Below, in pieces: positions 852 through 5,536 of a DNA stretch of 7,700 nt. The stretch lies in the IMG/VR virus record IMGVR_UViG_2529292718_000010, one strand, 5' to 3'. The stretch is from a virus (taxonomy: Duplodnaviria > Heunggongvirae > Uroviricota > Caudoviricetes). Numbering within the stretch: the stretch's first letter is position 1; every line of letters starts with the position of its first letter. The translations under genes and the position numbers were made by a program. The notes under the pieces are model-generated. The model searched no databases. It saw only the letters and a list, made by a program, of their open reading frames with translations, and was not told the origin of the DNA.

Positions 852-952
852 GAGTGTTCCCTTTGTGGTGTAGGAACCTTAAGGAAACAACATGTTGGGT
901 GGAGCGGACAATCCAAATGGTGAATTACTGTCTTATATCATTGGCGCTGACA
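1..952 (-). mobile_element. IS21-family insertion sequence, partial (left end plus 5' part of istA); continues beyond window start
   Basis: Minus-strand translation from ATG at 851 is open for 283 codons to the window edge and reads as IstA-like transposase (see istA feature). The non-coding end 852-952 terminates with TGTCAG on the minus strand exactly where integrase homology stops. Outer boundary is approximate (about +/-10 bp). Confidence 0.7.
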
Positions 953-1945
953 TAATGGGACGCCTGACTGAATCAGCCAGCTTGCCCAGGTGTGTCTGAG
1001 GTCATGGAAACGGAAATCTTCAATTCCTGCACGACGACAAGCTGATAGCCATGATGTCTTGCTGTCGATGCGCATCTTCCTGACCGCAGGCGTTGATGTT
1101 CCATCTGCTCGCTTAGCCGCCTTGGTATGTACAAACACCCATTTGTGATGCTTGCCTATTTGATCACGCAACACTTTACAGGCGGTATCGTTCAGCGCCA
1201 CACCAATGGCGCGGTTTGATTTGCTCTCTTCTGGATTCACCCAGGCAACTCGTCGCTGCATGTCGATTTGTTGCCATTCCAGATTTATGATGTTCGACTT
1301 TCTCAGACCAGTTGCCAGCGCAAACTTGACGACAGATTTCAGTGGTTCGGGGCACTCATCAATAAGGCGTTTTGCTTCCTCCTTTTCCAGCCATCTGACT
1401 CGCTTGTTTCTGACCGCTGGTATCTTGATGACAGGCGCTTTTTCCAGCCACTTCCAGTCGCGTTCTGCAGCACGGAGAATGGCCTTTATCATGGCAAGAT
1501 GCTTTGCCTTTGTCTGAGTTGATACTGGCTTTGGTTCATAAACAGGCGGTTCTTTACCTTTCCTGATGGCGGCCTGAACTTTCTGTTTCCATATTTCTTT
1601 CGTCTTTCTGTTATGCATTCTGCTTACAGCAGAGTAAATCTTTGCCTCCGAGATATCTTTAAGCCTTATACCCTCAAAATGTTCAAGCCAGAACTCAATC
1701 CGGCTTTTATCTGAATCGAGAGATTTTTTATCAGCTTTTTCCTCAAGCCATCTTAGGCAGGCCTCTTCAAAAGTGACATCAGGTAAATCCCCTAGCTTTT
1801 CTACTCGCCAGAGTTCTGCTTTTCGCTTGTCGTGCAACTCCTGAGCTTGCCGCTTGTCCTTTGTGCCAAGAGATTCCTTAATTCGTTTCCCGCCCGGGAG
1901 CGAATACGAGGCATACCATATTTCATTTCTGCGGAAGAGTGACAT
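938..1945 (-). pseudogene. intD: Phage tyrosine integrase (DLP12 IntD-like), 3'-truncated by the IS21-family insertion
   Basis: 335-aa ORF with a phage-integrase N-terminus ([34 protein letters not shown]...) and the conserved [18 protein letters not shown] box, then only CQRQ-stop, which is read from IS sequence. The downstream LLGH...Y catalytic tyrosine segment is absent. Strong RBS (AGAGGAAAG) before the ATG at 1945. The intD symbol is by family and context, not verified. Confidence 0.85.
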
Positions 1946-2172
1946 TTTCTTTCCTCTGTTATGCCATCACCCGCGCTCACCTGGACAGTATGCAGCGGAG
2001 ACTGAAGCGCCGCAATGCAGGCTTGCCGTGTTGTGAGGTAAGGAGATTTTGGCTTGGTTGGATCTTTACGTGTTGCCTGTAGGCGGCCTGTTCGTATCCA
2101 GTTGGTGGCGGTTGGTCTGGATATCTTAAGAAACTGACAGGCCTCATCGAGTGTGAGGCTGTATGATTCCAT
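1801..2172 (-). CDS. xis: Excisionase-like protein (lambda Xis-type), 123 codons with an unusually long C-terminal extension
   Basis: ORF-track 133-aa ORF trimmed to the Met with a good RBS (AGAGGT, 5 nt spacing): [31 protein letters not shown]... resembles the lambda Xis N-terminal pattern. Lies immediately upstream of int on the same strand. The 3' end overlaps int by 145 bp. Confidence 0.6.
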
Positions 2173-2422
2173 GGTTACCTCTGCTTTTTGAACGCATGTC
2201 ACGTAACTTCTTAATGTGTTCTGCCGTTTCGATCTCTTCTGCTATCCGATCTGCATCAGCTTTATTCACAGGTTCAAAGTCATGATTAAAGCGGAACATG
2301 CTGGCGATACATGTTCTGCCTTTTCGGATGTAGTGAACTTTGTTGTGGGTAGAACGCAGGATTTTGCAGGGAGTGCCGTGGTGGTCGACGTACCAGGTGT
2401 TAGGCAAAATGATTCTGAACAT
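2144..2422 (-). CDS. Hypothetical small protein (92 aa), first gene of the ORF92-xis-int string
   Basis: ORF MFRIILPNTWYVDHHGTPCKILRSTHNKVHYIRKGRTCIASMFRFNHDFEPVNK... with RBS AGGTG 5-6 nt upstream of the ATG. Overlaps the xis start by 29 bp, consistent with translational coupling. Family not recognised with confidence. Confidence 0.45.
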   Translation of the reverse strand: MFRIILPNTWYVDHHGTPCKILRSTHNKVHYIRKGRTCIASMFRFNHDFEPVNKADADRIAEEIETAEHIKKLRDMRSKSRGNHGIIQPHTR

Positions 2423-2435
2423 TTTTACACCTCAG

Positions 2436-2495
2436 TTGGAAGGTATGGCGAAAACACAGGTTATGTGGCTGAAAGAGGGGATTATTAAGGCGTGA
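2436..2495 (+). pseudogene. ybcO: 3' remnant of a ybcO-like (DUF1364) gene
   Basis: In-frame reading ends ...[19 protein letters not shown]-stop, matching my recollection of the YbcO C-terminus (...LEGMARTQVIWLKEGVIKA). Further upstream in the same frame the sequence is unrelated and hits a stop at 2334-2336. The stop (2493-2495) overlaps the rusA GTG start (GTGA), a typical coupled junction. Confidence 0.4.
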
Positions 2496-2854
2496 ATACC
2501 TACAGTATCACATTCCCCTGGCCTCCGAGCAATAATCGCTATTCCCGCCATAATCGCGGGCGCACGCACGTCAGCGCAGAGGGGCAGGCATACCGCGATA
2601 ACGTCGCCAGAATCATTAAAAACGCAATGCTGGATATCGGCCTGGCTATCCCTGTGAAAATCCGCATTGAGTGCCACATGCCGGATCGCCGTCGCCGTGA
2701 CCTGGATAATCTGCAAAAAGCCGCTTTTGACGCACTCACTAAAGCAGGTTTCTGGCTGGATGATGCTCAGGTCGTTGATTACCGCGTTGTGAAGATGCCT
2801 GTTACCAAAGGTGGGAGGCTGGAACTGACCATCACCGAAATGGGGAATGAATGA
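2492..2854 (+). CDS. rusA: Holliday junction resolvase RusA
   Basis: 120-aa ORF from a GTG start: [120 protein letters not shown], recognised as RusA. Length and position upstream of Q fit the nin region. Confidence 0.9.
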
Positions 2855-2991
2855 TGTTTGAGTTTAATATGGCAGAACTTCTTCGCCACCGCTGGATGCG
2901 CCTGCGCTTATATCGTTTCCCCAGTTCTGTTTTGACCGATTACCGAATACTGAGGAATTACGCCAAAACCCTGACAGGAGCAGGAGTATGA
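2851..2991 (+). CDS. ylcG: Small nin-region protein YlcG-like (46 aa)
   Basis: ATG overlaps the rusA stop (ATGA). Translation [46 protein letters not shown] matches my recollection of DLP12 YlcG. Below the ORF-track size cutoff, so found by hand. Confidence 0.6.
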
Positions 2992-3076
2992 AGTCAGAGA
3001 TAACAATCAACTAATACTGTTTTATTGATTTTTGCTTGTAATTGGCGTTCTGGTCTGATTTTTGTGGAGTAAGTTG

Positions 3077-3460
3077 ATGCGTGATATTCAGATGGTTCTT
3101 GAGCGTTGGGGAGCGTGGGCGGCTAATAATCATGAAGATGTGACCTGGTCGTCCATTGCCGCCGGTTTTAAGGGATTAATTACTTCAAAAGTAAAATCTC
3201 GCCCGCAATGTTGTGACGATGACGCGATGATCATTTGCGGGTGCATGGCCCGTCTGAAAAAGAACAACAGCGATTTGCACGATTTATTAGTAGATTATTA
3301 TGTAGTCGGTATGACATTCATGTCACTGGCAGGTAAGCATTGCTGCTCTGATGGTTATATCGGGAAAAGGTTACAGAAGGCTGAGGGCATAATTGAAGGG
3401 ATGTTAATGGCATTAGATATCCGGTTAGAGATGGATATCGTTGTTAATAACTCTAATTAA
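3077..3460 (+). CDS. quuD: Late-gene antiterminator Q (QuuD-like)
   Basis: ORF-track ORF trimmed to the ATG at 3077 with RBS GGAGTAAG: [64 protein letters not shown]... (127 aa). Cys-rich, and sits between the nin genes and the lysis cassette as in lambdoid phages. Confidence 0.85.
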
Positions 3461-3477
3461 TATGCCAATTGTTTACT

Positions 3478-3511
3478 AAAAATTATTAAAAATGGGGCGT
3501 TGAGACGCCCC
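3478..3511 (-). terminator. Intrinsic terminator for minus-strand transcription (candidate nmpC terminator)
   Basis: Stem GGGGCGT (3494-3500), loop TGAG, stem ACGCCCC (3505-3511). On the minus strand it is followed by ATTTTTAATAATTTTT. Confidence 0.45.
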
Positions 3512-3599
3512 CAAAAATAAAGGGTAATATATAACAGAAGGTTTATATAGTTAGAAGCAAGGTTGTGCTTCTAAAGGAAGTGGCTTGAGGGAGCCACTT

Positions 3600-3639
3600 A
3601 TATGTTGGGGAGGCAAAGCCTCCCGCAACATATCTTTTT
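3600..3639 (+). terminator. Intrinsic terminator for plus-strand transcription downstream of Q (tR'-like)
   Basis: 15-bp stem with one bulge (ATATGTTGGGGAGGC / GCCTCCCGCAACATAT), AAA loop, followed by CTTTTT at 3634-3639. It lies 11 bp from the nmpC stop on the opposite strand. Confidence 0.55.
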
Positions 3640-3649
3640 CGTAATCAGA

Positions 3650-4732
3650 TTAGAACTGATACACCAGACCTACAGCGACGATGTCGTCGGTATCAATACC
3701 AGCTGTTTTGGTAAACTTACTATCGTCAATTAAGTTGATTTTGTAATCAACAAAAGTGGACATGTTTTTATTAAAGTAGTAAGTAGCACCGACATCGACA
3801 TACTTGACTAAGTCTCGGTCACCATGAACACCAAGGTCTTTACCTTTTGACTGAAGGTAAGCAACAGATGGTCGCAGACCGAAGTCAAACTGATATTGTG
3901 CTACTGCTTCAAAGTTTTGTGCTTTGTTTGCAATATGGTTATTACCAAAAACGGTCATATTCTGAGTTTCAGAATATGTGGTAGCCAGATAGATATTGTT
4001 CGCATCATATTTCAGGCCTGCAGCCCATACTTCCGCATTTTTGCCGGAGGCATTGAATTTGCTCTTACCATAGGCGACCTGACCGTCAGTGCGATCTGAT
4101 TTAGCATAGGTTGCACCCACGCCGAATCCTTCATACTCATAAGTAGTGGAGAAACCGAAACCATCACCATTGGCTTCAGTTACGTCAGTGCGGTCATTTT
4201 TACCCTGATACTGAGCAGCAAAGTTCAGGCCATCGACCAGACCAAAGAAGTCGTTGTTACGATAGGTTGCAACACCAGTGGTGCGACCAGTCATGAACAC
4301 ATCTGTTTGGGTCCAGGTATCGCCACCGAATTCTGGCAGAACGTCAGTCCACGCACCGATGTCGTATGCTACCCCGTAGTTACGGCCGTAATCGATTGAG
4401 CCGTAGTCACCGAATTTCAGGCCTGCAAATGCAAGACGGGTTTTGTCTTTGGAGGAACCTTGAGATTCAGCGCGGTTGCCTTTGAATTCATATTCCCACT
4501 GACCGAAACCAGTCAGTTGATCGTTGATTTGGGTTTCACCTTTGAAGCCAAGACGGGCATAAGTAGTATCACCATCATCTGCATCGTTAGAGGAAAAGTA
4601 GTGCTTGGCATTAACTTTCCCGTACAGATCCAGCTTGTTACTGTCTTTATTATAAATTTCAGCTGCCTGAGCAGACATCGTCATCAGTACTGATGCAGCT
4701 ACAGCAGAAATTGCCACTGTTAATTTTTTCAT
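3650..4732 (-). CDS. nmpC: Phage-encoded general porin (NmpC/Lc/OmpD-type), apparently intact
   Basis: 360-aa ORF with signal peptide [23 protein letters not shown], a Gly/Tyr/Asp-rich beta-barrel composition and the C-terminal ...VGLVYQF aromatic end typical of outer-membrane porins. Located between Q and the holin on the opposite strand, as in DLP12/PA-2. Confidence 0.9.
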
Positions 4733-5320
4733 CGTGAGCCCTTTTTTTTGAACTATTATTAAAAAATGATGTCACTGCGCGATAAATATTCATCTAATCA
4801 ATGTGATTATTTCAAGATGTAAGTTTTAGTTTCTCATTTAATTTGTGAAGTAGATCTCTATTTTTATCTGAACTTTTTCTATCGAAACCTATTTATAGCT
4901 CTTATTTGAACAAAAATAAACCTATTAGCTAATTTATATTAATGGCTGTTATTTATGGGGGTTCTATAATTCGGTGGTTTAATTTAAATCAACTAAAAAT
5001 AACGCCGGAAATTATTTATTGGTTATTTGTTGAGGTTTTCTTATATATTTGTGGTGGTGTTTTGAACACTCGGTAGCATTCTCATAAATATCATTCAGTG
5101 GTTTACGTACGTAAAAAATTGGTTATGCTGTTAAGAGTGGTTACTTCGTCACACAGCTTAAACCCGCCGTCGAGCTGGTTTTTCCATTTTTTGAGTCTCG
5201 ATATTAGCTGATAACTCAATACCTGAGTTATTCACTGACTCCGAGTCTGTTACGTTTCTGCTTTTTTGCGATACGTTGTATTCCCTCAATTTACACCCGC
5301 TTTGTCTGCGAGGTGGGGTT
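4733..5320. promoter_or_regulatory. AT-rich intergenic region holding the nmpC promoter (minus) and possibly late-operon control elements (plus)
   Basis: About 590 bp of strongly AT-rich non-coding DNA between the divergent nmpC and essD starts, with no ORF of 60 aa or more. Contains a 14-bp perfect palindrome TTTACGTACGTAAA at 5102-5115. Exact promoters not resolved. Confidence 0.4.
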
Positions 5321-5536
5321 ATGAAATCCATGGATAAGTTAACAACGGGTGTCGCCTATGGCACCTCAGCAGGTAGTGCCGGTTACTGGTTTTTACAGCT
5401 GCTCGATAAAGTCACGCCCTCACAGTGGGCAGCAATAGGTGTGCTGGGTAGCCTGGTATTTGGCCTGCTGACGTACCTGACAAACCTTTATTTCAAGATT
5501 AAAGAAGATAAGCGCAAGGCTGCGAGAGGTGAATAA
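5321..5536 (+). CDS. essD: Class II holin (S21-type pinholin) with dual-start motif
   Basis: [71 protein letters not shown] (71 aa): two TMDs, the first Gly/Ala-rich. Met1/Met4 (MKSM) is the classic holin/antiholin dual start. RBS GAGGTGG. The ORF-track start at 5276 is a TTG extension. Stop overlaps the endolysin ATG. Confidence 0.9.

Follow-up and report, generated by a model that had tools for sequence, protein, structure and literature searches.

In lambdoid phages such as lambda, 21 and 82, the late promoter pR', the qut element and the terminator tR' directly follow the gene for the antiterminator Q. In Shiga-toxin (Stx) phages, the start of the pR' transcript has been mapped by dRNA-seq (Sy et al.) to a position 258 nt upstream of the 3' end of tR', and an RNase E cut between GU and AUU was placed at +173 (PMC7547250). 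A second described system that bears on the locus considered here is IpeX, which the passages of PMC12197685 devoted to it present as a 167-nt RNA of the cryptic prophage DLP12. According to the same passages and the corresponding parts of PMC5069750 and PMC3333887, IpeX is made from the porin promoter within the porin transcript, is then processed and represses ompC and ompF; these three sources, like the portion of PMC7177473 that deals with the RNA, cite Castillo-Keller, Vuong & Misra 2006 for it.

The 7,700-nt stretch of viral DNA analyzed here (referred to as the window) comprises the late-control and lysis region of a lambdoid prophage of the DLP12/qsr'/PA-2 type (Table 1). Over 1.8 kb around the hairpin-rich zone between Q and nmpC (positions 3461-3649), the window shares 99.9% identity with many E. 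coli chromosomes, whose annotation shows quuD (antitermination protein Q) and a porin gene, and one matching E. coli record gives the order intD, rusA, ylcG, quuD, porin (reverse strand), essD, rrrD, rzpD. The arrangement of the window is also that of phage PA-2, in which the porin gene is lc, and of K-12, but there IS5 lies inside nmpC; the laboratory recombinant phage 434B has Q, nmpC::IS5 and S in that order. The Q-nmpC spacer itself, compared over 226 nt, shows 98.7% identity to both K-12 strains and PA-2 (J02580). Of 5426 complete E. coli genomes, 2510 contain it, as do 36 phage records, and in each of these phage records the porin gene adjoins it. A partial match in E. coli JB2 that ends at 3524 was set aside as merely an IS5-family insertion with a deletion. 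QuuD shows only a distant likeness to Q21 and is 78-81% identical to the Q933-type Q proteins of Stx phages, and its homology to relatives ends after residue 120 (...LEMD). Overall, we consider it very probable that positions 3461-3649 are the junction of Q with a reverse-strand nmpC cargo, consisting of the IpeX tail and convergent terminators, and that late transcription starts at 5136 and not in this zone.

Table 1. Features of the window between Q and essD (positions are those of the window).
Feature	Position	Strand	Description
quuD (Q-type antiterminator)	3077-3460	+	127 aa; Pfam PF06530, Q21 family; stop 3458-3460
Predicted intrinsic terminator of nmpC/IpeX transcript	3478-3511	-	hairpin 1, then AUUUUUAAUAAUUUUU (3493-3478)
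Hairpin 1	3494-3511		7 bp, -12.5 kcal/mol, z -4.3; stem GGGGCGU/ACGCCCC
Predicted target-pairing core of IpeX	3515-3547	-	plus strand is an inverted copy of the ompC 5' UTR (AAATAAAGG..ATATAACAGAAGGTT)
Fifth hairpin, weak, AU-only	3528-3549	-	-2.1 kcal/mol
Hairpin 2	core 3553-3572		7 bp, -7.4 kcal/mol; 9 bp at 3551-3574 in whole-region fold; structural module of IpeX
Hairpin 3	3578-3599		-12.4 kcal/mol on plus strand, -10.4 on minus strand; structural module of IpeX
Hairpin 4	3600-3633		15 bp, one bulge, -22.2 kcal/mol, z -6.5
Predicted intrinsic terminator for transcripts leaving Q	3600-3639	+	hairpin 4 plus C-TTTTT
nmpC/lc-type porin gene	3650-4732	-	intact, 360 aa, no IS5; stop 3650-3652; reverse-strand cargo (moron)
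nmpC promoter region	4733-5100		
Late promoter pR' (by homology)	5101-5136	+	-35 TTTACG 5102-5107; 16-nt spacer; -10 TATGCT 5124-5129; start-equivalent A5136
Palindrome TTTACGTACGTAAA, candidate Q-binding element	5102-5115	+	contains -35 TTTACG
Late leader	5137-5195	+	conserved 5' stem GUGG..UCAC, then terminator-like hairpin 5160-5181 with tail TTCCATTTTTT
essD (S21-type holin)	5321-5536	+	first late/lysis gene downstream of pR'

The initial annotation, made from the sequence alone, had read the Q-nmpC spacer as a convergent terminator zone with four hairpins and had named folding energies as a check. All four hairpins do fold where it placed them, each with an energy well below that of its own shuffles, and the fold of 3461-3660 is stable beyond chance on both strands: against dinucleotide shuffles, z was -6.4 on the plus strand and -8.9 on the minus strand, and 0 of 200 shuffles was as good. 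The convergent arrangement also stands, with hairpin 1 as the putative minus-strand terminator and hairpin 4 as the putative plus-strand terminator. Consistent with the proposal that hairpin 1 and its minus-strand U-tract terminate nmpC, a consensus terminator scan called 3511..3494 followed by ATTTTTAATA, and among relatives the variation of this hairpin is confined to the loop. Because hairpins 4, 3 and 2 have no U-tract on the minus strand (and hairpin 2 has none on either strand), hairpin 1 would be the sole canonical terminator of nmpC, ∼160-170 nt past the stop codon; for want of a U-tract after it, hairpin 4, the 5'-proximal stem of IpeX, cannot be expected to terminate on that strand.

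Downstream of hairpin 4, the plus strand reads C and then TTTTT at 3635-3639, a tract that numbers 3-5 T in relatives, and the consensus scan misses 3600-3633 solely owing to the bulge. The description of this last hairpin, with its CTTTTT, as tR'-like and just after Q was thus half right: a plus-strand terminator is predicted here, but its identity as tR' is not upheld, the pR' homologue lying at 5101-5183. In a 2024 study of IS5 at nmpC, an rrnB terminator added in the nmpC/quuD spacer had no effect, which led the authors to infer that transcription coming from quuD is already stopped by intrinsic terminators (PMC11677980); this result is indirect support for a plus-strand terminator after Q. 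We infer that termination takes place at each of the predicted sites. On the plus strand, hairpin 4 and its T-tract would stop transcripts leaving Q, in the absence of antitermination, and so spare nmpC antisense transcription. Eight aligned variants of the zone are 93-100% identical, too little variation for a covariation test; most changes lie in loops or bulges, and those outside the 3515-3547 core fall in loops, in a bulge, or shorten a stem. In PhiR29_1, hairpin 2 has a T to C change in its 3' arm, which still permits a G.U pair on the minus strand and leaves an A-C mismatch on the plus strand.

The minus-strand stretch 3483-3649 is, as judged from its locus and sequence, the published and thus already known IpeX RNA, with which the nmpC/lc porin messenger ends as an untranslated 3' tail. 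If 3649, which adjoins the nmpC stop codon, is taken as the first base, a length of 167 nt brings the end to 3483, within the U-rich stretch that follows hairpin 1; the nmpC stop and the minus-strand terminator flank the stretch as they do in IpeX, and the gene order matches K-12 and PA-2. The structured 3' region of ∼170 nt that had been proposed after nmpC is therefore real in its extent, from the stop at 3650-3652 to the terminator at 3511-3478, but its identity with a published regulatory RNA had been missed. An Rfam search of the whole window (E ≤ 1) matched no family and did not recognize IpeX. The nmpC messenger would pass the stop codon, then hairpins 4, 3 and 2, the AU hairpin and a single-stranded spacer, and would end at hairpin 1 and its U-tract; the GC-rich hairpins 2-4 would stabilize the processed IpeX.

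We compared IpeX with porin messengers by contiguous-pair and local tests, as whole-length RNAduplex gave meaningless long duplexes. Nucleotides 107-121 of IpeX (AACCUUCUGUUAUAU; window 3529-3543) can form 15 contiguous bp, one of them G.U, with positions -21..-7 of the K-12 ompC mRNA (AUAUAACAGAGGGUU), and this helix covers the ompC Shine-Dalgarno sequence. None of 1000 shuffles reached 15 contiguous bp (the shuffle maximum was 12), and the duplex that includes a second, 9-bp helix has a predicted energy of -26.7 kcal/mol, which 4 of 1000 shuffles reached. At the DNA level, the plus strand of window 3515-3547 aligns with the ompC 5' UTR (AAATAAAGG----CATATAACAGAGGGTTAATA) with a score reached by 0 of 1000 shuffles. 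As read from the sequences, 14 of 15 positions can pair between IpeX 116-130 and ompF -14..+1. The control ompA, which is reportedly not affected by IpeX, gave only a 9-nt A/U run and nothing comparable, and nmpC itself gives 7. The pairing bases sit in the loop of the AU hairpin and in the spacer before the IpeX terminator: the loop reads ACCUUCUG on the IpeX strand, a complement of the Shine-Dalgarno sequence, and the predicted unpaired fraction is 89% for the loop and 70% for the spacer. The 3515-3547 core is invariant in 8 of 8 aligned variants, as is 3512-3560. These results suggest that the core of IpeX is an inverted copy of the ompC ribosome-binding region and make IpeX look like a classical antisense RNA, whose unpaired loop and spacer would cover the Shine-Dalgarno sequences of ompC and ompF. 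Castillo-Keller et al. 2006 are said to have reported no complementarity of IpeX to ompC, and the 15-bp match predicted in the window differs from that conclusion.

It could be argued that the hairpins are merely insulating terminators left by the cargo insertion and that porin repression by the tail is a multicopy artefact without a physiological role, as IpeX was reportedly found as a multicopy suppressor in the 2006 paper and as IS5 severs the tail from the nmpC promoter in K-12. We regard this as extremely improbable. PA-2 lysogens reportedly need the 3' tail of lc to lower OmpC. Clinical isolates express ipeX, as stated in the part of PMC7177473 concerned with it. Further, the 15-bp anti-Shine-Dalgarno match and the inverted homology to the ompC UTR would be unexpected for a mere terminator array, in which, moreover, three hairpins have no U-tract on either strand.

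With respect to late transcription, Rueggeberg et al. 2013 reportedly found that the DLP12 homologue of Q controls the promoter of the lysis cassette. The part of PMC7918800 that touches on this point cites Rueggeberg et al. 2013 for Q control of the lysis operon. In Stx2 phage II (L004), both published pR' distances fit only a start at A2957 (T-tract end, 3214; GTATT, 3128-3132), which is preceded by the -35 TTTACG (2923-2928), a 16-nt spacer and the -10 TATCAT (2945-2950), and an independent record labels this stretch 'Promoter'. Window 5101-5183 matches L004:2922-3003 with 76-77% identity (blastn, E ∼1e-11), and when window 3380-5400 was compared with Stx loci by blastn, this was the sole match besides Q itself. 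In an alignment of DLP12-type phages, PhiR55_1, two Stx phages and 1H12, GTTTAC, CGTAAAAA and TATnnT are invariant. On grounds of homology, we consider it settled that the pR' homologue lies at 5101-5183, ∼1.6 kb past the hairpin zone and just upstream of essD. The initial annotation had expected late read-through antisense across the whole of nmpC unless the late promoter lay upstream of essD; its reservation proved to be right, and the read-through need not arise because the pR' homologue lies between nmpC and essD.

Q would load at 5102-5116, and Q-dependent late transcription would start at 5136 (TTTACG-16-TATGCT), run through the leader terminator at 5160-5195 and continue into essD, never crossing nmpC. 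The leader terminator sequence is AAACCCGCCGTCGAGCGGGTTT followed by TTCCATTTTT (window 5160-5181), and the scan calls a terminator here in K-12; a G-to-T change at 5176, shared by the window, PA-2 and PhiR29_1, weakens the predicted leader hairpin from -14.1 to -8.4 kcal/mol. The -10-like pause element, TACATT at +7..+12 in Stx phages, is TACTTC in the window, which is weaker and lacks the final T, and the element differs again in the Xenorhabdus and Providencia relatives.

To place the window within the QuuD family, we collected 30 loci with QuuD relatives from species-representative genomes of eight genera (Escherichia, Shigella, Trabulsiella, Pantoea, Citrobacter, Xenorhabdus, Providencia and Morganella) and searched them for the exact pattern TTTAC[AG][AT][AT]CGTAAAA, followed by a -10 after 16 nt. 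The exact motif, TTTACRWWCGTAAAA, was present downstream of Q in 27 of the 30 species-level loci; the three without it are two short contigs and one locus with a 36%-identical Q. Every Q locus examined that had the motif had exactly one copy, in the orientation of Q, and in the window the copy lies only at 5102-5116. The distance of the motif from the Q stop is -12 to +29 nt in 23 loci, and the values for the others are +140, +2338 and +2856. Because the motif sits near the Q stop in most loci, pR' abutting Q appears to be the default state of the family. The phage records with the Q gene (401) and those with the element at 5085-5200 (363) are similar in number, and in the records of Stx phages the element either overlaps Q or comes immediately after it. 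In phages of the DLP12/PA-2 type, by contrast, Q and pR' are separated by 1.65 kb (3439-5100) that hold a new Q tail, the hairpin zone, nmpC and the promoter region of nmpC. The junction is marked in the Q proteins of four lineages, which are collinear as far as ...LEMD (residue 120) and differ beyond it. The nmpC cargo thus appears to be inserted between Q and pR'.

Similar orders recur in other lineages. In PhiR55_1, a hairpin and T-run come right after Q, and a reverse-strand ORF separates Q from the motif; in Citrobacter braakii, Q is followed by a terminator-like hairpin, and three ORFs on the reverse strand precede the motif; and 1H12 has a plus-strand terminator after Q, reverse-strand blc, a forward ybgA-like gene and then TTTACA-16-TATGAT. 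The cargo is wholly reverse-strand in PhiR55_1 and Citrobacter braakii and mixed in 1H12. Because the order Q, terminator, cargo, motif recurs in this way, the comparison supports a reading of hairpin 4 as a plus-strand insulator that accompanies cargo at the Q junction and not as tR'. In an alignment of the sequences downstream of Q in the window, 1H12 and Stx2 II, window 3469-3540 weakly resembled a promoter-like stretch after the 1H12 Q; this candidate was rejected, the real 1H12 motif being at L016:2283.

The initial annotation had looked for pR' and qut within 3461-3560. In full, such an arrangement would place pR'-qut-tR' directly after Q as in the paradigm of lambda, 21 and 82, with a promoter at ∼3500-3530, the pause element TATAGT at 3546-3551, hairpin 4 as tR' and antisense read-through across nmpC to the lysis genes. 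Viable phages such as 434B do carry Q, nmpC::IS5 and S in order, and a rough PWM scan ranked plus-strand TTGAGA(3500)-19-TAATAT(3525) higher than the pR' homologue and among the top 0.01% of the window, with the -10-like TATAGT ∼10 nt and a strong hairpin with T-tract ∼100 nt downstream. However, the candidate has a 19-nt spacer, and the AT-rich -10-like hexamers of the zone are explained by the inverted copy of the ompC 5' UTR. Neither does 3461-3560 match the Stx pR': homology to the mapped promoter of the 78%-identical Q933 system is found at 5101-5183 and not in the zone. The family motif, single in the window, is absent from 3461-3649 even with three mismatches allowed, and other lineages repeat the order of Q, terminator, cargo and motif. 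We therefore consider a late promoter in the zone very improbable.

The same hexamers could instead be a Q-independent plus-strand promoter, from which a ∼100-nt RNA ending at hairpin 4, perfectly complementary to IpeX, would act as a cis-antisense or sponge of IpeX and the nmpC 3' end. Two variants shorten the TTGAGA/TAATAT spacer to 17-18 nt, which together with the high PWM score, the suitable distance of the terminator and the invariance of 3512-3560 in the aligned variants would fit such a promoter. Nonetheless, we consider it quite unlikely: a stricter consensus scan found no promoter at TTGAGA/TAATAT, the -35 falls within the loop and 3' arm of a terminator hairpin and is not constant among relatives (TTGAGA, TTGCAA, TTGAAA, TGGAAA), the invariance of 3512-3560 is already explained by the IpeX seed, and we found no report of such an RNA.

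Given the positions of the two predicted terminators, the nmpC tail and transcripts that run out of Q would overlap by ∼150 nt. A combined reading, in which IpeX acts by anti-Shine-Dalgarno pairing and a plus-strand antisense RNA titrates or destroys IpeX, coupling the lytic switch to host porin levels, strikes us as unlikely; if it were true, early-right or Q transcription at induction, or a plus-strand promoter at 3500-3530, would make a perfect antisense of IpeX.

Returning to the junction of Q with IpeX-bearing cargo as the preferred explanation, the analysis bears on how such loci are annotated. The Q-nmpC spacer, which roughly every second complete E. coli genome contains, would be annotated as ipeX plus convergent terminators and not as pR'/tR', and in DLP12-type prophages the late promoter would belong upstream of essD. 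An essD-proximal pR' would remove the apparent paradox of late transcription running antisense through a porin gene, and the Q-pR' junction emerges as a recurrent landing site for cargo, largely on the reverse strand. Two hypotheses follow: that IpeX may be an inverted ompC leader that pairs with the ompC ribosome-binding region, and that the palindromic motif marks pR' throughout the QuuD family and may be a Q-binding element.

Compared with known systems, the tail shares with IpeX of DLP12/PA-2 (Castillo-Keller, Vuong & Misra 2006) the locus, the sequence (98.7%), the position from stop codon to Rho-independent terminator, the length of ∼167 nt and a highly structured character; it differs from the K-12 copy in that nmpC is intact and the tail is joined to its promoter, whereas in K-12 IS5 separates the two. 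With MicF and MicC, IpeX shares a short imperfect antisense match to the ompC/ompF ribosome-binding region, a location beside another porin gene and an end at an intrinsic terminator, but IpeX is a piece of a porin messenger derived from its 3' UTR and not a separate divergent gene, and there is no shared sequence. The nmpC block resembles phage morons in being a reverse-strand gene with its own promoter region and 3' terminators, inserted at a module junction. Unlike them, it sits between Q and its promoter and not downstream of tR', and the junction, after Q residue 120, is shared by at least four lineages. Finally, zone 3461-3649 resembles the lambdoid pR'-qut-tR' region (lambda 6S RNA; StxS of Stx phages) in lying downstream of Q, in having a strong hairpin and T-tract on the strand of Q, and in its AT-rich sequence with -10-like hexamers, but it lacks both the family promoter motif and homology to the pR' mapped for the closest Q relatives; it is at 5101-5195 that homology to a mapped pR', a conserved -35 and -10 and a predicted leader terminator before essD are found together.

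Judged by its sequence, window 5101-5195 is the homologue of the late promoter pR' that was experimentally mapped in Stx phages (PMC7547250). This promoter homologue is located 185 nt upstream of essD and is separated from Q by nmpC; its elements are listed in the table, together with the cargo genes discussed below. At position 5176, in the leader terminator's 3' arm, K-12 and most DLP12-type phages carry G; the window, like PA-2 and PhiR29_1, carries T (GCGGG to GCTGG), and with this T the leader hairpin weakens from -14.1 to -8.4 kcal/mol.

Late promoter features and cargo at the Q junction
Feature	Position	Strand	Remark
pR' homologue	-35 TTTACG at 5102; -10 TATGCT at 5124; start-equivalent A5136	+	homology to Stx pR'
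Late leader terminator	5160-5195	+	part of the pR' homologue region
Cargo at Q junction			nmpC
Cargo at Q junction			reverse ORF, 149 aa
Cargo at Q junction			blc and a ybgA-like gene
Cargo at Q junction			three reverse ORFs, Citrobacter braakii (L027)

The 5' stem of the late leader is conserved as GUGR/YCAC from E. coli to Xenorhabdus, and the putative CRP site in the PA-2 GenBank record (L003:1730-1750) coincides exactly with this stem (GTGGTTACTTCGTCAC; window 5137-5152). Stx2 phage II (L004) has a strong terminator-like hairpin at 2980-3005, consisting of CCCGCGCAUCGGCGGG followed by U7 and labelled 'Terminator' in one GenBank record. It is positioned at about +24 to +49 of the Stx pR' transcript, far ahead of tR' mapped at +258; the 258-nt StxS precursor extends beyond it. 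Further downstream in the window, a hairpin at 5296-5332 (CCCGC..GCGAGGUGGG) is predicted to sequester the ribosome-binding site of essD. The essD gene itself has two in-frame starts, ATG 5321 and ATG 5330; this is the dual-start organization for holin and antiholin that the phage 434B annotation gives.

We compared the Q proteins of four lineages, which align collinearly as far as ...LEMD (residue 120) and end beyond it in unrelated tails of 1-24 residues (window 3430-3460; loci L004, L016, and L017). On this alignment, the residue 120 point is a recurrent junction for the entry of cargo. In E. coli TUM13066 (L011:2201-3492), the hairpin zone and porin gene adjoin ybcM without any Q gene; the identity of this copy is 88.9%, and its T-tract on the plus strand, CTTTG, is the shortest. 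The integrase gene of the window (938-1945, minus strand) is within about 550 nt of rusA (window 938-2991), so this strain lacks the prophage early region entirely and retains just int, rusA, ylcG, Q, nmpC, and the lysis genes.

Between Q and nmpC, the plus-strand pair TTGAGA-19-TAATAT (3500-3530) was among the best 0.01% of the window with a rough sigma-70 position weight matrix. Its -35 is contained in terminator hairpin 1, where it spans loop and 3' arm; the variants PhiR63_2 and 4C10 have a spacer of 17-18 nt. An RNA antisense to IpeX would result if this candidate promoter were active. Because the plus strand of 3515-3547 (IpeX nt 103-135) nearly duplicates the 5' UTR of ompC, IpeX is complementary to the Shine-Dalgarno regions of ompC, with a predicted pairing of 15 contiguous bp, and of ompF, with a predicted 14/15 bp. 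The original IpeX paper reportedly found no complementarity. A 43-amino acid ORF (3602-3733, plus strand) begins within hairpin 4 and is antisense to nmpC. Its counterparts are 'ORF1' in the PA-2 record of 1986 and a 'hypothetical protein' in several phage records. Most probably, this ORF is not a gene.

The -35 of pR' is overlapped by a palindrome, TTTACG-WW-CGTAAA (window 5102-5115; L004:2923-2936; 27 of loci L019-L045). Across eight genera, it follows Q genes of the QuuD/Q933 type with exact conservation, except that the central dinucleotide alternates between TA and AT. The palindrome is a candidate Q-binding element. Whereas Q21 has direct TGAGCA repeats, the candidate element of the QuuD/Q933-type proteins would be a palindrome instead.
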